64,000 nucleotides of DNA from an uncultured bacterium (GCA_903869825.1 CAIQAL010000028.1:1315-65314), one strand, 5' to 3'; positions 359-43,843 are shown, counted from the stretch's first letter. Program-made: numbers and translations. The notes: generated from the letters alone by a model not told the origin.

Positions 359-2050
359 ATGGCTCTTTCTTCGTTTTCAAAAAAAGAACGGATTGTTTTT
401 TTAGTTCTTTTGGGAATTTTATTTTTTAGTACTGCAGTTTTACTCGAAAAAGTGAATGAGAATTTTATGGTTAGTGTTCCAGCTAAGGGTGGTTCAATCT
501 CGGAAGGAATTATTGGTTCTCCGAGGTTCATAAATCCAATACTCGCTATTACCTCAGCCGATAATGACTTAGTTTCTCTTGTTTATTCTGGTCTAATGCG
601 AAGAAACACTGAAGGCAATCTGATTCCCGATTTAGCTCAAAAACCGGAGATCTCCAAGGATGGTCTAACTTATACTTTTACATTAAAGAACAACATATCC
701 TTTCAAGATGGGAAACCAGTAACGGCAGATGATGTGATTTTTACTATTAATGAAATAAAAGATCCGATTATAAAAAGTCCAGAAAAAATAAATTGGGACG
801 GAGTGACTGTAGAAAAGGTTGACGAGAAAACAATTAAATTTACGCTCAAACAACCTTATGCTTCATTCTTAGACAATACAACTTTGGGAATTCTTCCAAT
901 GTATTTATGGTCAAATTCACCAATCGAAATAAACGACCACAACATAAGCCCAGTCGGATCCGGTCCTTACCAAGTCACAAAGGTAAATAAACAATCAAAT
1001 GGGGTAATAAATAGTTTAGAATTAAAATCCTTTAATAAATTTGTTTTAGGAGTGCCATACATTGGAAATATCACTTTTAATTTTTACCCCAATGGAAGTG
1101 ACCTAATCTCTGCCCTTTCAAATGGGGACATTTCCCAAGCAAGTTCCATCACTCCTAAAAATGCCGAAGATTTAAAATCAAAAAACTATGTCATTAAATC
1201 TTCTGTCTTGCCAAGAGTTTTTGGGCTTTTCTTCAATCAAAATAAGAATCAAATTTTCACCGACAAAAATTTAAAAGAGGCCATAAATCTCGCTATAGAC
1301 AAAGATAAAATCGTGAACGACGTTCTTTCTGGATATGGGATGGTGACCGATAATCCAATTCCATCAAGTTTGGTTGTTTATGAAAATTCAAACGGTAACA
1401 TCAAAGGGACTACCGAAGAAAATTTTGCAAAAGCCAGTAATCTTTTGGAAAAAGACGGTTGGAAAAAGAACGCCGCTGGTTTTTTGGAAAAGACTGTGAC
1501 GATAAAGAAAAAGAAAACAACCACAACCTTAGAATTTTCAATTTCGACCGGAAATACTCCAGAACTTGCCGAGTCCGCTGAAATTGTAAGACAAAATTTA
1601 ACGGCACTTGGAATGAAAGTGGATGTAAAAACTTTTGAGGTAGGTAACCTGAATCAGTCAATAATTCGTCCACGTGATTATGAAGTGCTTCTATATGGTC
1701 AAATGATTAATCATGAATCCGACTTGCTTTCTTTCTGGCATTCTTCCCAACGAACCGACCCGGGAAGAAACATCGCGATGTATACAAATGCAAAAGTAGA
1801 TAAAATATTGGAAGACGCTTTCACCATGACCGACTCGGAAGCTCGAGCAAAAAAATATGTTCAATTTGAAGACGAAATAAATAAAGATTTGCCGGCGGTA
1901 TTCTTGTATAGCCCAGACTTTATCTACGTAGTATCAAGTGATCTGAAGGGAATTAATGTCGAGCATATTACTTCTCCTTCTGATAGATTCCTTAATTCAT
2001 ATTTATGGTATCTTAAGACAGAAAACATTTGGAAAATGTTTTCTAAATAA
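359..2050 (+). CDS. ABC transporter substrate-binding protein, family 5 (oligopeptide/nickel type), N-terminal membrane anchor
   Basis: ~560 aa; N-terminal TM (LVLLGILFFSTAVLL); length and sequence pattern of SBP_bac_5 proteins; ORF opens at 281 but Met at 359 precedes the signal/anchor. Confidence 0.55.
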   Translation: MALSSFSKKERIVFLVLLGILFFSTAVLLEKVNENFMVSVPAKGGSISEGIIGSPRFINPILAITSADNDLVSLVYSGLMRRNTEGNLIPDLAQKPEISKDGLTYTFTLKNNISFQDGKPVTADDVIFTINEIKDPIIKSPEKINWDGVTVEKVDEKTIKFTLKQPYASFLDNTTLGILPMYLWSNSPIEINDHNISPVGSGPYQVTKVNKQSNGVINSLELKSFNKFVLGVPYIGNITFNFYPNGSDLISALSNGDISQASSITPKNAEDLKSKNYVIKSSVLPRVFGLFFNQNKNQIFTDKNLKEAINLAIDKDKIVNDVLSGYGMVTDNPIPSSLVVYENSNGNIKGTTEENFAKASNLLEKDGWKKNAAGFLEKTVTIKKKKTTTTLEFSISTGNTPELAESAEIVRQNLTALGMKVDVKTFEVGNLNQSIIRPRDYEVLLYGQMINHESDLLSFWHSSQRTDPGRNIAMYTNAKVDKILEDAFTMTDSEARAKKYVQFEDEINKDLPAVFLYSPDFIYVVSSDLKGINVEHITSPSDRFLNSYLWYLKTENIWKMFSK

Positions 2051-4120: not shown

Positions 4121-5269
4121 ATGCCAAATCATAAAAACATCACATATCTGGCAGGATTCTTGTTTTCCGTTTCTCTCGCTCTCATTTCTTATGTTAACTC
4201 CAGTTTCCTAGGTAGATTTGTTAGCGAGTATTCGGTTGGAGCTATTTTTATTATAGCATCAATCCTGACTGTCTGGTCCCTTCTTAAAATGCCAATAATT
4301 CTTGCGCAACTAGGAAACCGCTTCACTGCTCTTTTGTTTTCTTTGTTGAATTTTATTGCCCTCTGTGTGATGGCACTGGCAGGAAATGCTTACATTGTTA
4401 TTCCGGCTTTTATATTATTTTTTATTTCGATGAATTTTCTTATTGCATCGTTTGATATTTTTGTCGAGGATATGTCAAAAAATCACTCGGTTGGAAAACT
4501 ACGCGGACTGTTCTTAATGACTGTTAATATTGCCTGGATTTTGGCTCAAATTATTTCGAGTTCGCTAGTAGCAAGTGGTTCTTTCCGAGGAGTATATTTC
4601 TTTTCAGCAAGCTTTATGTTTCTCGTTTCAGTAATTTTTCTTTTTTTCTTTGGGAATTTCAAGGACCCGAAGTACATAAAGGTGCCGATATTGAAAACAC
4701 TAAGAGTGTTTATCCAAAATAGAAATATTTCAAAAATATATTTAATAAATCTTATCTTAAAATTATTTTTTGCCTGGATGGTTATCTACTCTCCAATCTA
4801 TATGTCGGAATATCTTCACTTCAACTGGGAGCAAATAGGAATTATCCTTACTATTATGCTTATCCCTTTTGTTTTAGTAGATTATCCTCTCGGAAGGTTA
4901 TCGGACAAAATTGGTGAAAAGAAAATATTAATTACCGGTTTTTTAATTAGCATCTTCTTTACTTTCCTGATTCCTTTTATTAATAGCGCAAGCGTCCTTG
5001 TCTGGGCGGGCGTTTTTTTCTGTACTCGGATTGGAGCTGCTAGTATCGAAGTAATGAGTGAAGGTTATTTCTTCAAAGTAGTCAAGGAAAAAAACGCGGA
5101 TGAAGTTAGTTTTTTCCGAAATACTTTTCCCCTTTCTTACATTATCGCTCCCGCCATTGCCACTCCTTTACTGTTTATCCTCCCATCTTTTAATTTTTTA
5201 TTTTTTATTATTGCTGCCTTTTTGCTTTTAGGACTCCTAATAACTTTACGGCTTCGAGACATTAAATAA
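4121..5269 (+). CDS. polytopic membrane transporter (MFS-like)
   Basis: 382 aa, ~10-12 predicted TM segments, no soluble domain. Confidence 0.45.
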   Translation: MPNHKNITYLAGFLFSVSLALISYVNSSFLGRFVSEYSVGAIFIIASILTVWSLLKMPIILAQLGNRFTALLFSLLNFIALCVMALAGNAYIVIPAFILFFISMNFLIASFDIFVEDMSKNHSVGKLRGLFLMTVNIAWILAQIISSSLVASGSFRGVYFFSASFMFLVSVIFLFFFGNFKDPKYIKVPILKTLRVFIQNRNISKIYLINLILKLFFAWMVIYSPIYMSEYLHFNWEQIGIILTIMLIPFVLVDYPLGRLSDKIGEKKILITGFLISIFFTFLIPFINSASVLVWAGVFFCTRIGAASIEVMSEGYFFKVVKEKNADEVSFFRNTFPLSYIIAPAIATPLLFILPSFNFLFFIIAAFLLLGLLITLRLRDIK

Positions 5270-7112: not shown

Positions 7113-7141
7113 TTGACTTCAATTTTACGAAAGCATAGAAT
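7113..7141 (+). promoter_or_regulatory. sigma70-like promoter (TTGACT -17 nt- TAGAAT) driving the riboswitch leader
   Basis: ttgact at 7113-7118, 17-nt spacer, tagaat at 7136-7141. Confidence 0.35.
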
Positions 7142-7147
7142 AAAGAA

Positions 7148-7322
7148 GTTCGTATAGTAATTTATATAAGTGATTGGGGAAACTGGTTTGATTCCAGTAC
7201 AGTGCCGCTACGGTAAGCCCTCTTGGGGGACGAGTCCGAATACCAATCATTTAAGACAATCCCGAGCAGGAAACTTCTTTTTTGGAAGCCCAAAATTCTG
7301 CCGGAAGCAGAATTTTTTTTAT
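7148..7322 (+). ncRNA. cobalamin (AdoCbl) riboswitch-like leader with intrinsic-terminator expression platform
   Basis: GGGGAAACTGGTTTGATTCCAG...GCCGCTACGGTAAG resembles conserved cobalamin core (GGGAAnnCGGTGAAAnTCC...CGCnACnGTnA); AGTCCGAATACC resembles B12 box (AGYCMGGAGACC); ends in hairpin aattctgc-cggaa-gcagaatt + T8 (7294-7320) 4 nt before ATG. Confidence 0.55.
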
Positions 7323-40019: not shown

Positions 40020-40907
40020 TTATAACTTTTTTTCGGCTTTTAGAAACAAATCAAGGTCACCTGAGAGAACTGCATCAACGTTTGAGGTTTCAGCATCGGT
40101 TCGATGATCTTTCACCATCTTGTAGGGATGAAGCACATATGAGCGAATTTGACTCCCCCATTCTATCTCGGTGTTACCACTTTTTTTCATACTTTCTTCT
40201 ATCATCTTTTTTTCTTGTTCCGCCCGCCTAAAAATTTTGGCTCGTAAAATAGACAAAGCTTGTTCCCGGTTTTGTTCTTGAGAACGCTGTCCAGAAGCGT
40301 GAACTGATATCCCTGTCGGGATATGCACTATTCGAACGGCAGTTTCTCTTTTGTTGACATTCTGCCCGCCAGGACCTCCGGCTCGGGCAAATTCAATTTT
40401 CAAATCTCCTTCCGGGATTATAAAATCACGCTCTTCCAACTTGGAAAATTTCGGCAAAACCTCAACCAATGAAAAAGAAGTATGCCGCAACTTTTTTGCG
40501 TTGAAGGGTGAAATTCGGACTAACCGATGCACCCCGGATTCGTTTTTCAAAATACCATAAGCATTTTTACCTTCCACTTCAAATGAAACATTCTTATACC
40601 CATTCTGTTCGTTTTTATGTTCATTAATAAATGAAATTCCCCACCCTTTCCGATCGGCATATTTCAAATATATCTCGAGTAATATTCGAGAGAAATCTTC
40701 CGCGTCATCCCCCCCGGCTCCGGAGATAATCGTTATTATTGCATTACCTTTATCATATTTCCCCAAGCCTGCTTTTTTATTTTTTAATTCTTCAAGTTCC
40801 CTAATGGTGTTTTTCGCTTTTTCTTTATTCAGCCAAAAATCTGATCCCGTCATTTCTTGTTCGAGCCGAGCGATACTCTCTTCTATTTTATTTTTGTCTT
40901 CATCCAT
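40020..40907 (-). CDS. prfB: peptide chain release factor 2 (N-terminally short form, no frameshift site)
   Basis: SPF tripeptide (RISPFNAKK), GGQ motif ([24 protein letters not shown]), 295 aa. Confidence 0.85.
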
Positions 40908-40909
40908 GA

Positions 40910-40981
40910 GCCACCTCTCGGGATTGAACCGAGGACCCCGTCTTTACGAAAGACGTGCTCTACCAACTGAGCTAAGGTGGC
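40910..40981 (-). tRNA. tRNA-Thr (anticodon CGU), no encoded CCA
   Basis: minus-strand cloverleaf GCCACCU...AGGUGGC, D-arm GCUCAGUUGGUAGAGC, anticodon stem CGUCU/AGACG loop UUCGUAA, T-arm GGUUCAAUCC. Confidence 0.8.
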
Positions 40982-41052: not shown

Positions 41053-42099
41053 TCATTTCGAAAGTGCTTCAATCACACTCGCAGTACTGTCTGAAGGAGT
41101 TTTTGTTTGAGAACCAAAAATGTTTAGATTAATAAACCAAAGGGCAAAAATCAAGCATAGAACGGAAAGCCCACGAAATAATATCATTGGATGATTCTTC
41201 TTTGATTTTTTTATTATTATTAGAAGTAAGGCGATAGAAACGAAAAGGAAAAATGCTACAAAAATATAATTCACATACTCCCTAGGTGAAGTAAAAATTC
41301 GGCTCAAAAATACTTTAGTATTTGAATAATTTTTTGTTAAATCCCCCTGATTTGTAGCTTCGCCCAAAACTCTCGTTTCGACGGGAGTAGCAGGTAAAAC
41401 TGTCTTTACCCCTGTTGCCAGTTTAGGTTCAGCTTTTACAGGGGTTTTCGGCACAACGGGGTTTTGAGGGATAATGGATTTATTCTGGGCCACTTGCACG
41501 GTCGAAACTGAAGGATGGGTTCCAAAAAATTGCGCTACGAAAACTGTATTTTTCCCTTCGAAAATTCCATTTGCCACCCCGAACCCAACTTCGGTAAATT
41601 CTTTTTTTACTATGTTTGCACGGTGAGCTGGAGAATTCATCCAGGCTTCCGCGATATCTTTTGATTCAAAAAAGTTTATTGCTAAGTTTTCTCCCGCATA
41701 ACTATAATTGTAACCGACTTGATCGAAAAAATACCAAGGATCTTTCCCGTCAGGAGTAATGTGAGAAAAATATCCCCGGGTAGCCATATCATCCGCTTTC
41801 ATTTGAGCTGCCTTATCAAGTAAATTACTCTCGACAAGAGGGGGGGCATCGTTTTCTGCCCGATCTTGGTTCGTGAGTGAAGTAAGGACTGCAGGCAAAA
41901 CCGCTCCTAGTAATTTCGTTTTATCAAAAACAACAAATATTTGAGTAAGAAACAAAACCTCTATTCCGACAAGAACAACCAGTGAAACCATGACTGCTTT
42001 TGCTCTGAAAAAATGAGGTTTGTGATCATTACCTTCGTGAGGGATGAAATATTTTCTGAAACCTTTGACTAATTTCCACATTAATTGATTATATAACAC
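41053..42099 (-). CDS. CAP/SCP (YkwD-like) domain secreted protein with N- and C-terminal TM segments
   Basis: CAP-domain stretch ...GYFSHITPDG...YAGENLA...EAWMNSPAHRANI... Confidence 0.65.
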   Translation of the reverse strand: MLYNQLMWKLVKGFRKYFIPHEGNDHKPHFFRAKAVMVSLVVLVGIEVLFLTQIFVVFDKTKLLGAVLPAVLTSLTNQDRAENDAPPLVESNLLDKAAQMKADDMATRGYFSHITPDGKDPWYFFDQVGYNYSYAGENLAINFFESKDIAEAWMNSPAHRANIVKKEFTEVGFGVANGIFEGKNTVFVAQFFGTHPSVSTVQVAQNKSIIPQNPVVPKTPVKAEPKLATGVKTVLPATPVETRVLGEATNQGDLTKNYSNTKVFLSRIFTSPREYVNYIFVAFFLFVSIALLLIIIKKSKKNHPMILFRGLSVLCLIFALWFINLNIFGSQTKTPSDSTASVIEALSK

Positions 42100-42166
42100 A
42101 AAAACTAATCGTCAACTTTACTATTTTTTAAAAAAACAGTTCATGCTTGTATTTATTTTTTGTCTG

Positions 42167-42443
42167 AGCCGTTGATCGGGATTGAACCGATGACCTCGAT
42201 ATTCGTTTACACCTCCATTTCGCCCAAAATGGGCTTATAGAAGGACTAGACTGTATCTTACGCATATCTTTCGATGAAGCGTCCCTTGTCAGTCGTTCGG
42301 GCGGAAGTACATTTCTGCGCTCTCGCCACGGTCTTGTCCTTTTCAGGATATTAACCGTAATTCGGGTTTCACAAGCAAGTTTCCTCGCAAGCGGGCTATT
42401 AACGATAACCAATATCGTGCTCTACCAACTGAGCTACAACGGC
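42167..42443 (-). tRNA. tRNA-Thr (anticodon GGU) interrupted by ~204-nt group-I-like intron between positions 36/37
   Basis: 5' exon (42408-42443) GCCGUUGUAGCUCAGUUGGUAGAGCACGAUAUUGGU; 3' exon (42167-42203) AAUAUCGAGGUCAUCGGUUCAAUCCCGAUCAACGGCU; exons join to canonical cloverleaf with loop UUGGUAA; intron ends in G, 5' exon ends in U, contains AAGAUA...CAGUCUAGUCC element like group I J8/7-P7. Confidence 0.55.
42204..42407 (-). mobile_element. group-I-like self-splicing intron in tRNA anticodon loop (no ORF)
   Basis: 204 nt between tRNA halves; U(-1)/terminal G; GAAA-loop helices (GCGAGGAAACUUGC), P7-like CAGUCUAGUCC; size similar to bacterial tRNA IC3 introns. Confidence 0.5.
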
Positions 42444-42565
42444 ATATTTTTTTCTAATGAACCGGTGACCCAGGTAATTCCTAATGCGGTCATACCTCCT
42501 CACCCTAAATTATTTTACCCTTACTTTACAAACATATTCTCTCTGCTCAAGGTAGACCCACTCTT

Positions 42566-42603
42566 TACCAATATCGTGCTCTACCAACTGAGCTACAACG
42601 GCT
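42566..42603 (-). repeat. 38-nt direct duplicate of tRNA-Thr(GGU) 5' half (positions 1-38) carrying intron-less anticodon loop UUGGUAA
   Basis: accaatatcgtgctctaccaactgagctacaacggc identical to 42408-42443; followed (minus strand) by AA then unrelated sequence; no matching 3' half. Confidence 0.6.
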
Positions 42604-42643
42604 TATTTATTTTTTTGGAGATGTTAGAATACTACTATATTTT

Positions 42644-43843
42644 TTAAGGATTTTCAATGATTGCTTCTTTTTGAAGAACCATTTTTGATTTCAAAAAAAT
42701 AAAAACAATCATTGCAGCAAACGCTACCATTGCCGCAAATAAAAATGCATATGAAGGATTTATGGTCCAGAGGAATCCTGCAACAAGCGAGGCAGGAAGA
42801 TAAATAATTCCGGTGGTAAAATTATACATTCCAATAGCTGTTGCTCTTCTTTCCTTTTCAATATCTGCGATAAACGCCTTGCTTTGGGCTTCATCAATAC
42901 TGTAAAAAACACCAAATAAAATAAACAGCCCAATAATTTCCCATTTTTCTGTGGCAAAAATGAAGCCTATAGACATCAAAATGTACACAATATACTCGAG
43001 GATAATAATTGATTTTCTTCCAATAACATCTCCTAGTTTACCTATCGGAATTGAAATAATTACAAAAGAAATATTAAACAAGGCATACAGAAGCACGACA
43101 TCTTTTAACGCAAAACCGACTGCATAAGCTTTTAGTAATAAAAATGCAAAAGAAAAATACGCCAGAGAAAAAATTCCAGCAGGGATAAGATAAAGTTTAA
43201 ATCCTTTACTTAGGGTGCTTGATGCTTTAAAAATATTTTCTTTTTTGTGTGGGATTCCGGGACGATCTTTCATAATGGAAAGAATAATGACTGCTCCAAT
43301 CGCACAAGCAACAGCAGAGACGAAAATAATATGGAAAGCCCCTAGCTTTGTACCAAACGCGCTTAAAACAAAATACGCAAAGATAGGACCAAGAATTGCC
43401 CCGGACTTATCAAGCGCTTTATGCACTCCAAAAGAGTATCCCCTATTTGCTTCGCCGGCCACTTCCGATATCCACGCATCTCTCGGGGGGCCACGAAAAC
43501 TCTTCCCCAATCGCTCGATAATTCGGAAAGAAGCAAGGATTGCAACCGAATTTGCAAACAGAAGGAGTGCTTTTGCTAAAGTCGAAAAACCATATCCAAG
43601 CATAGTTAACGCTTTTCTTTTACCTGATTTATCTGAAAGCCAACCGGCAAAATAATCGAGCGAAGAAGCGGAAAAATCAGCAAAACCTTCGACAAATCCC
43701 AAAAAAGCTACTGAGGCTCCGGCGATTGTAGTGAAAAAAATTGAAAAAACAGAAAAAATTGCTTCGGAACTGACATCCGTCAAAAAACTCACAAACCCGA
43801 GTCTCAAGATATCTGGATGAACGTTGAATAATTTTTTTTTCAT
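42644..43843 (-). CDS. MFS transporter (12 TM)
   Basis: 399 aa, 12 TM, MFS loop motif GWLSDKSGKRK. Confidence 0.65.
   Translation of the reverse strand: MKKKLFNVHPDILRLGFVSFLTDVSSEAIFSVFSIFFTTIAGASVAFLGFVEGFADFSASSLDYFAGWLSDKSGKRKALTMLGYGFSTLAKALLLFANSVAILASFRIIERLGKSFRGPPRDAWISEVAGEANRGYSFGVHKALDKSGAILGPIFAYFVLSAFGTKLGAFHIIFVSAVACAIGAVIILSIMKDRPGIPHKKENIFKASSTLSKGFKLYLIPAGIFSLAYFSFAFLLLKAYAVGFALKDVVLLYALFNISFVIISIPIGKLGDVIGRKSIIILEYIVYILMSIGFIFATEKWEIIGLFILFGVFYSIDEAQSKAFIADIEKERRATAIGMYNFTTGIIYLPASLVAGFLWTINPSYAFLFAAMVAFAAMIVFIFLKSKMVLQKEAIIENP

Follow-up and report, generated by a model that had tools for sequence, protein, structure and literature searches.

A conserved 5' fragment of tRNA-Thr(GGU), likely part of a pseudo-tRNA leader, upstream of an intron-bearing tRNA-Thr(GGU) gene in Paceibacteria

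Introduction

Incomplete tRNA genes tend to be discounted as 3' scars that prophages and islands have left behind. They are known from the borders of integrated elements, where they occur in the attL/attR repeats (van der Gulik et al., bioRxiv 10.1101/2022.07.05.498093). Here we describe a 5' fragment of a tRNA-Thr(GGU) gene that lies upstream of the functional, intron-bearing gene in a stretch of 64,000 nucleotides (nt) of DNA from an uncultured bacterium (GCA_903869825.1, CAIQAL010000028.1:1315-65314), which is called the window in the following. The fragment is the beginning of an element of about 160 nt that is known from the window and nine other Paceibacteria lineages, four of which have intron-less genes. 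Fragments of tRNA genes as such are already known; the points of interest here are the conservation, the 5' polarity and a locus that is frequented by selfish elements.

The element resembles the attL/attR tRNA fragments in that a non-functional fragment stands beside an intact tRNA gene as a direct repeat, and in one relative (locus L100; the loci of relatives are designated by L and a number) a breakpoint linked to a recombinase falls into the pseudo-anticodon loop. Unlike these fragments, it is a 5' half located upstream and not a 3' part located downstream. It is separated from the gene by 121 nt with no integrase in the window, and both fragment and spacer have been conserved between lineages in which synonymous sites have reached or nearly reached saturation. 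Cis-mobilisable elements (CIMEs) are att-flanked remnants of integrative elements that lack an integrase of their own. The element shares with them a short segment with att-like flanking repeats and the lack of its own recombinase, but it is far smaller, carries a replacement 5' tRNA half and showed no signs of mobilisation in the sequences compared.

Group I introns of bacterial tRNA genes have been described for the cyanobacterial tRNA-Leu and tRNA-fMet and for the tRNA-Ile of Azoarcus (review PMC3984707), and those in tRNAs of the bacteria studied here have already been remarked on (PMC8172020). The intron of the window is likewise small, has no open reading frame (ORF), interrupts the anticodon loop, and has a U-G pair at the 5' splice site and a terminal G. 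It differs in its host, a tRNA-Thr(GGU) of Patescibacteria, in a sequence too divergent for the Rfam model RF00028, and in that it did not give rise to the duplicate. Homing endonucleases that are free-standing and lie in tRNA regions, and 'collaborative homing', are known from T4 SegB (PMC2330249) and F-CphI (PMC6083498). Similarly, a GIY-YIG gene is found directly upstream of the intron-bearing tRNA in L082; in contrast, no such gene is present in the window, and the GIY-YIG proteins of the relatives have only about 78 amino acids (aa) and consist of the catalytic domain only.

Leaders that mimic tRNAs include the thrS operator and the T-box leaders. The element has in common with them a predicted transcribed leader with a tRNA-Thr-like anticodon loop, and its conserved GACCAC block includes ACC, which is complementary to GGU. 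Unlike these leaders, it precedes a tRNA gene and not a synthetase gene, its anticodon stem is broken in most lineages, and it has neither an Rfam match nor covariation.

Results and discussion

Positions 1-36 of the tRNA-Thr(GGU) gene are repeated upstream

The 36-mer GCCGTTGTAGCTCAGTTGGTAGAGCACGATATTGGT, which corresponds to positions 1-36 of tRNA-Thr(GGU), was found exactly twice in the window, both times on the minus strand (42602..42567 and 42443..42408). The repeat search gave a start-to-start distance of 159 nt for this pair, and the 36-mer recurred in none of 100 dinucleotide-preserving shuffles. This agrees with a preliminary description of the window, which had proposed an exact repeat on the same strand upstream of a gene interrupted by an intron. 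When the two exons of the downstream gene (42443..42408 and 42203..42167) were joined, ARAGORN recognised a canonical tRNA-Thr(GGU) of 73 nt, so the interruption is confirmed as well. Compared with the spliced tRNA, the upstream copy matches over 38 nt, i.e. it continues after GGT with AA, two bases beyond the insertion point, and thus carries the intron-less type of loop (UUGGU-AA), as the same description had noted.

The upstream copy has the properties of a tRNA gene fragment. Positions 1-38 are intact, the 3' strand of the anticodon stem is unpaired (AGAGT in the window no longer pairs with the 5' strand CGATA), the T-arm is cut in its loop and the 3' strand of the acceptor is missing. No such strand (CAACGGC) was found between the two copies, and therefore the upstream element cannot yield a tRNA. 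ARAGORN, with and without intron search, called no tRNA at the upstream copy, which speaks against the second complete tRNA gene that had been considered there. The earlier statement that no 3' half follows holds for the acceptor strand; it had overlooked a variable-loop-like GGGTC (42559..42555) and a T-arm-like GGTCACCGGTTCA (42470..42458) in the spacer, the latter being identical in 12 of 13 positions to GGTCATCGGTTCA of the functional gene. A 3' fragment of tRNA-Thr that could represent an attR was not found elsewhere in the window. The sense strand of the spacer contains no ORF, as had been stated. That statement did not cover the antisense strand, where an ORF of 76 codons (42417..42647, plus strand) is open in the window, L086 and L089 and is broken by 1-3 stops in the other lineages; it is probably spurious.

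The element is conserved in Paceibacteria and does not depend on the intron

The loci for comparison were reached by a metagenome scan and by look-ups through neighbouring genes. The MFS transporter adjoining the locus in the window is 70-75% identical to proteins of Paceibacteria/Patescibacteria metagenome-assembled genomes. A homologous element was found before the intron-bearing tRNA-Thr(GGU) genes of the window, L081, L083, L085, L086/87 and L091-93, and also before the intron-less genes of L089/90, L094/95, L096-98 and L099. Since it precedes intron-less genes in L089, L094, L096 and L099, the element is independent of the group I intron and, as far as this distribution indicates, probably older.

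All homologues follow a common plan. It starts with a tRNA-like part of positions 1-48, consisting of GCCGTTGTAGCTYAG..GGTARAGCAC, five variable bases, TTGGTAA, a TAAAC-like sequence and AGGTC. The middle part has about 75 nt and contains the blocks AAGGRTAAAAT and GACCAC. It is followed by a second (AAAC)AGGTC, the start of a T-stem/T-loop (AYNGGTTC) that breaks off in the loop, an A-rich stretch of about 12 nt and the functional gene. The loop TTGGTAA is invariant in all ten homologues, and AGGTCAYNGGTTC, which comprises the second repeat and the T-arm-like fragment, is kept in all ten as well. Where the window has AGAGT GGGTC, the relatives read TAAAC AGGTC. In L083, the pseudo-anticodon stem is intact but of a different sequence (GTTTG/CAAAC).

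The length of the spacer is 117-130 nt over the ten lineages. Among six loci, the pairwise identity of the spacer was 0.55-0.83 in nearly gap-free alignments, whereas shuffled sequences that were aligned likewise reached 0.34-0.43. The four-fold degenerate sites of the linked xerD-like gene, which is within 400 bp, were 0.25-0.64 identical, and for several pairs they were at about 0.39 as compared to a spacer identity of 0.69-0.74. For purA, the four-fold sites of the window and of L086 or L081 were 0.30 identical. The fixed length and the high identity of the spacer against four-fold sites at or near saturation argue that the element is not decaying freely in place, and compared with these sites and with the shuffles the spacer does not behave as expected for a tRNA pseudogene in neutral decay. 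The spacer identity roughly follows that of xerD, which argues for co-inheritance among the xerD-linked loci. A hidden Markov model (HMM) of the spacer matched only loci upstream of tRNA-Thr(GGU).

No reading frame of the element is open in all ten lineages, as tested for a conserved small ORF. The D-stem of the upstream copy keeps its pairing through a double change from GCTC/GAGC to GCTT/AAGC (one covarying pair), and the fold of the single sequence of the element had a z-score of -1.4. When the region 42050..42750 was searched with Rfam at the gathering score and at E values up to 10, only matches at chance level were obtained and no intron, tRNA-like or regulatory family was found. The conserved blocks at their fixed spacing would suit binding sites for a protein or polymerase, or a sequence-specific RNA, better than a folded RNA. 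A possible pairing of the anticodon-type loop with TTACC of the spacer was also considered and was rejected, as the complementarity is not conserved across the lineages.

The two 5' halves are identical in some lineages and diverged in others

When each copy was compared with the 5' exon of its own locus over positions 1-36, no mismatch was found in the window, L086 and L091; the other intron-bearing loci had 2 (L081), 5 (L085) and 19 (L083) mismatches, and the intron-less loci 5 (L096), 6 (L089), 6 (L099) and 8 (L094). At positions 29-30, lineage-specific states (AT or TC) are common to both copies in the window, L086, L091 and L085, and the 3' strand of the pseudo-stem does not track these changes. 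Such a patchy pattern is expected from short-tract gene conversion between the 5' halves. In the intron-bearing genes, the homology for gene conversion necessarily ends at the start of the intron. We infer for the 36/36 identity either concerted evolution by short-tract gene conversion or a fairly recent arrival of the block by recombination in the tRNA halves.

A promoter-like site precedes the element

The only sigma-70-like match upstream of the tRNA on the minus strand is TTGAAA-17-TAGTAT (42657..42629), and it lies ahead of the element. Equivalent sites (TTGnnA-16/17-TAnnnT) are present 40-113 nt upstream of the element in seven of the ten homologous loci, and no conserved promoter-like site was observed inside the spacer among the ten. 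The same site is located ahead of a plain tRNA gene in L130. As the only promoter-like site is upstream of the element, the element is probably a transcribed leader.

We therefore favour, as the likelier reading, that the upstream copy forms the 5' portion of a conserved 'pseudo-tRNA-Thr leader', which lies between the promoter-like site and the functional gene and is independent of the intron. The element would descend from the sequence of an intron-less tRNA-Thr(GGU) gene, of which positions 1-48 are still recognisable, followed by about 75 nt of foreign or rearranged sequence that is flanked by the (AAAC)AGGTC direct repeat. Judged from the consensus match, transcription would start at the upstream promoter-like site and the element would be read as a long 5' leader. 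RNase P would then remove the leader by cleavage at the start of the real tRNA, and the intron would be removed by self-splicing.

It is more doubtful whether the leader is a functional element that is under selection in Paceibacteria and not a relic. In one possible form, it would be a cis-acting RNA governing how the probably single tRNA-Thr(GGU) is made or matured, for example via the tRNA-like 5' half and the GACCAC block. In another possible form, it would be a landing pad or a decoy that diverts integrases and homing endonucleases from the working gene. The conserved 5' fragment with its spacer of about 120 nt suggests either that Patescibacteria, with their reduced genomes, possess an unrecognised leader of a tRNA gene, or that mobile elements have a long-lived target here.

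Several observations weigh against the leader and its conservation. The element is absent from L130, which is the closest relative found, and from L004, L082 and L084, so it is either dispensable or was gained by the lineage of the window. No convincing conserved fold was found beyond the D-arm hairpin and a 4-bp GACC/GGUC helix. The homogenisation of the two halves is not uniform, since the copy in L081 reads CGTCA and its own 5' exon CGATA. The sample comprises about ten lineages, every one of which was reached through two flanking genes, and for the window itself a horizontal movement of the whole block could mimic conservation.

Other alleles at the locus

The alignment of related genomes that had been suggested earlier revealed intron-less alleles at the syntenic site in L004 and L130. 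In L130, the MFS protein is 91% identical and the four-fold sites are 0.45 identical to those of the window. Its locus consists of the same promoter, a short leader and a plain intron-less tRNA-Thr(GGU) gene. The upstream copy of the window aligns with the 5' half of this gene in a continuous stretch that runs from the MFS gene end across the promoter, and the 3' exon of the window aligns with its 3' half. Formally, the window is L130 plus 363 nt (the spacer, the second 5' half and the intron). The leader of L130 holds a shorter AGGTCATCAC, possibly a remnant of the element; with this remnant and four-fold sites at 0.45, both loss and gain are possible.

In L004, the intron-less gene follows three tandem units of 45 nt that start like the tRNA. 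These units (L004:4259-4393, GCCGTTATAGCTGTTTTGGTAAGTCGATACGATAAAACAAAATAT) are identical, and one similar unit is present in L081:770-807; they may be a collapsed upstream element. L082 agrees with L086 in the promoter and over the first 26 nt of the upstream copy. L082 has, in addition, a GC-rich hairpin of 36 nt in the D-loop, and a GIY-YIG gene of 78 aa replaces the spacer. In L084, an ORF of 198 aa (591-1187, minus strand) lies between trmD and the intron-bearing tRNA-Thr, directly upstream of the tRNA. It had no match in Pfam, NCBIfam or PDB; the stretch GLGLFWGEGS looks LAGLIDADG-like by eye only.

The XerD-like protein of L099 and L100 is the same, and the two do not differ between the T of TTGGTAA and the locus end. 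Left of this T, L100 has unrelated DNA (L100:1-971) with a tyrosine-recombinase ORF (1-763) about 200 nt away. The pseudo-anticodon loop was thus a recombination breakpoint in one population, and the arrangement in L100 looks like a recent integration into the pseudo-tRNA. In different relatives, this one locus hosts a divergent group I intron, a free-standing GIY-YIG gene and a recombinase-associated insertion. This makes it a compact natural system in which to study the sharing of one tRNA gene by selfish elements.

Origin of the duplication

An origin by insertion or recombination into an intron-less gene, with the incoming DNA supplying a new 5' half, is plausible. The internal (AAAC)AGGTC repeat, the truncation in the T-loop and the breakpoint in L100 fit an old insertion or site-specific recombination. 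More specifically, the element might be the scar or miniature of a site-specific integrative element which brought a replacement 5' half and left the resident half stranded at the promoter, similar to a CIME. This would concern the origin and is compatible with a pseudo-tRNA leader. We consider it tentatively, as it is not the likely course. The inserted DNA is flanked by a direct repeat of 36-38 bp, its middle segment by the internal (AAAC)AGGTC repeat, which extends over about 20 nt in L099, and the breakpoint of L100 at the pseudo-anticodon loop is near a tyrosine-recombinase ORF. Further, L130 looks like an empty site, since the upstream copy and the 3' exon align with its single gene. In the xerD-anchored loci, L081 and L083, a XerD-like gene follows directly downstream of the tRNA. 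This gene is, however, very widespread and conserved (2260 homologues below an E value of 1e-40) and may for this reason be a housekeeping Xer as well as an integrase. The 'integrase' beside the tRNA in L081 and L083, on which the hypothesis of an island had been based, was dropped as direct evidence, as this XerD-like protein is widespread, conserved and absent from the window.

No recombinase was found in the window by tblastn with the recombinases of L081 and L083. Integrases that target tRNA genes reportedly duplicate the 3' part of the gene and not the 5' part, whereas here it is the 5' part that occurs twice, and the promoter-distal copy belongs to the intact gene. The element is also old, with repeats that have diverged in several lineages. 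The spacer had no match in the collections of phages, plasmids and viral contigs, so that the mobile-element match envisaged in the preliminary description was not obtained. An 18-mer of the spacer had 29 matches in viral contigs, all by chance, the spacer HMM had none there, and a 19-mer of the tRNA was absent from viral contigs. The att-type duplication raised in that description has some support: the internal repeat, the L100 breakpoint and the empty-site appearance of L130 agree with it, and the lack of a nearby integrase and the duplication of the 5' half do not.

Alternatively, a homing endonuclease could have cut in the tRNA gene, and the repair of the break could have led to a local segmental duplication of the 5' part. 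SegB of T4 is reported to act similarly in phage tRNA regions; it cuts in a tRNA gene cluster (PMC2330249) and is reported to promote the segmental amplification of anti-defence loci (PMC13096335). Small GIY-YIG genes are found between a 5' tRNA fragment and an intact tRNA in L082, L026 and L050. In these cassettes (L082:630-939; L026:461-760, minus strand; L050:376-680, minus strand), a GC-rich hairpin interrupts the 5' fragment within the D-loop, and a GIY-YIG ORF of about 75-78 aa and then the intact tRNA follow. Their hosts are Thr-GGU (L082), Thr-UGU with an intron (L026) and Glu-UUC (L050). L091:700-760 (Thr) has such a hairpin-split fragment but no ORF, and the hairpin is similar to the one in L050 (Glu). 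5' fragments upstream of several other tRNA genes in these genomes point in the same direction. However, the GIY-YIG gene of L082 replaces the spacer of a pre-existing element; as the promoter and the first 26 nt are common to L082 and L086, it looks like a later guest and not like the cause. The locus of the window has no endonuclease gene, and when the GIY-YIG ORF, the ORF of L084 and the recombinases served as queries, tblastn gave nothing in the spacer or the entire window. We regard break repair as improbable.

A relic of intron mobility, by homing, reverse splicing or recombination with a cDNA of the spliced tRNA, had been proposed in the preliminary description and is very improbable. 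The upstream copy has the loop expected after splicing, its identity stops 2 nt past the insertion site of the intron, and endonuclease-like genes lie beside intron-bearing alleles, namely the GIY-YIG gene in L082 and the ORF of 198 aa without a family in L084. Against this stands the occurrence of the same element before the four intron-less genes. Past the insertion site, only AA matches in addition, and these two bases simply represent the loop of the ancestral intron-less gene, given that TTGGTAA is invariant in all homologues. The copy runs on into a diverged anticodon-stem strand, a variable loop and a T-arm piece, which fits a paralogue at the DNA level, and the intact stem of different sequence in L083 is likewise in line with descent from paralogous DNA rather than from a cDNA of the tRNA now present. 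In addition, the intron has no ORF, and a tblastn search of the window with three candidate proteins, two of them endonuclease-like, gave no match. From the earlier proposal of an intron-less allele or spliced RNA as the source, the intron-less DNA thus remains and the spliced RNA falls away.

An assembly artefact or an overlooked second complete tRNA gene is hardly credible, as the general risk of repeats in metagenome assemblies is its only support, whereas at least nine independent assemblies, which come from four sources (JGI, ENA, NCBI and Logan), show the same architecture and there is neither a CAACGGC strand nor an ARAGORN call between the copies.

5' fragments at other tRNA genes

5' fragments were also found upstream of the genes for tRNA-Ala (L010), tRNA-Val (L016), tRNA-Lys (L048, two copies), tRNA-Met (L085:160-246), tRNA-Thr-UGU (L026) and tRNA-Glu (L050). 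Those in L010, L016, L048 and L085 are degenerate copies of the gene's own 5' part that lie 37-183 nt upstream, as detected with 20-mers and up to 3 mismatches. The phenomenon is thus not special to tRNA-Thr(GGU). Fragments of this kind seem to be common before tRNA genes in these Paceibacteria genomes, and the pseudo-tRNA-Thr element may be one case of this wider habit. In a literature search, no description of 5' tRNA fragments that are kept before tRNA genes was found.

The functional gene is interrupted by a divergent group I intron

The insert of 204 nt has no ORF and lies between the positions 36 and 37 of the tRNA. Six homologous inserts were recovered in relatives, with sizes in the range of 193-209 nt. 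A group I topology was derived from RNAalifold and from reading the alignment, and was counted on the seven homologous sequences. In 14 helices (10 of the intron and 4 of the tRNA), 99.2% of the cells are paired, and compensatory changes occur at 16 pairs. Of 500 shuffles, none was as good, and slid controls had 31-40% pairing. The structure comprises P1, P2 capped by GAAA, the P3/P7 pseudoknot, P4-P6, P8, P9, a J8/7 with the sequence AAGAUA and a terminal G. In P1, GGU|UAU pairs with AUAGCC. The U36-G wobble at the 5' splice site is invariant in the seven sequences, and the intron part of P1 is fully compensatory in L091 (AGA/UCU). P3, P4 and P7 are invariant, and therefore their support comes only from the fit to the group I topology. 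The terminal G (omega-G) at 42204 is invariant too. The spliced tRNA of the window is 100% identical to the intron-less gene of L004. With this strong support by covariation, the insert is a small, ORF-less and divergent group I intron.

RF00028 of Rfam did not match the intron at the gathering score or at E values up to 10; it did match the tRNA introns of L026 and L005, which shows the divergence of the intron in the window. ARAGORN at default settings missed the intron-bearing gene, and with intron search it miscalled a tRNA-Pro(GGG). An automated annotation could thus report that the genome lacks tRNA-Thr(GGU).

Features of the locus and its neighbourhood

The window is chromosomal DNA with about 36% G+C. 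The local order of genes is guaB, purA, MFS, the tRNA-Thr(GGU) locus, a CAP-domain gene, tRNA-Thr(CGU) and prfB. The features of the locus are listed in Table 1.

Table 1. Features of the tRNA-Thr(GGU) locus in the window, from the promoter-like site to the 3' exon
Feature	Position	Strand	Basis
Promoter-like site TTGAAA-17-TAGTAT	42629..42657	-	consensus match only
Upstream copy, tRNA positions 1-38: acceptor 5' strand, D-arm, anticodon-stem 5' strand, loop TTGGTAA	42565..42602	-	repeat and L130 alignment
AGAGT GGGTC: degenerate anticodon-stem 3' strand and variable-loop-like GGGTC	42555..42564	-	first copy of internal repeat
Middle of spacer with conserved blocks GTAAGGGTAAAATAATTT (42524..42507) and GACCGC (42491..42486)	42472..42554	-	alignments of relatives
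GGGTCACCGGTTCA: second (A/G)GGTC repeat copy, then T-stem/T-loop-like fragment ending inside the T-loop	42458..42471	-	
A-rich immediate leader TTAGAAAAAAATAT ahead of the functional gene	42444..42457	-	
Functional tRNA-Thr(GGU) 5' exon, positions 1-36	42408..42443	-	
ORF-less group I intron of 204 nt between positions 36 and 37	42204..42407	-	covariation
3' exon AATATCGAGGTCATCGGTTCAATCCCGATCAACGGCT, positions 37-73, CCA not encoded	42167..42203	-	ARAGORN on joined exons

The interval between tRNA-Thr(GGU) and tRNA-Thr(CGU) is variable between genomes. It contains a CAP-domain gene of 348 aa in the window (41053-42099, minus strand) and an ORF of 86 aa in L130 (1374-1634); in L004 it has 78 nt and no gene (4473-4550). 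A second type of tRNA-Thr was found in L089:2390-2462, L094:1089-1163, L096:1096-1169 and L004:4551-4624. Its D-loop is without the usual GG (AGGTAGTA), and its T-loop is TGCAAAT or TGCAAGT instead of TTCAAAT; the changes appear to be coupled at the contact of the D-loop and the T-loop.

In the window, an ORF resembling release factor 2 (40020..40907) begins directly after the 3' end of tRNA-Thr(CGU) (40907-40981, minus strand). Its Pfam PCRF match starts from profile position 60, and the N-terminal part is short or missing. An LOOT RNA (Rfam RF03000, 83.8 bits) is located directly downstream of the XerD-like gene in L091:2129-2250. Finally, a cobalamin riboswitch aptamer was detected in the window at 7130-7265 (plus strand) with 33.7 bits, compared to the Rfam gathering score of 31.5.

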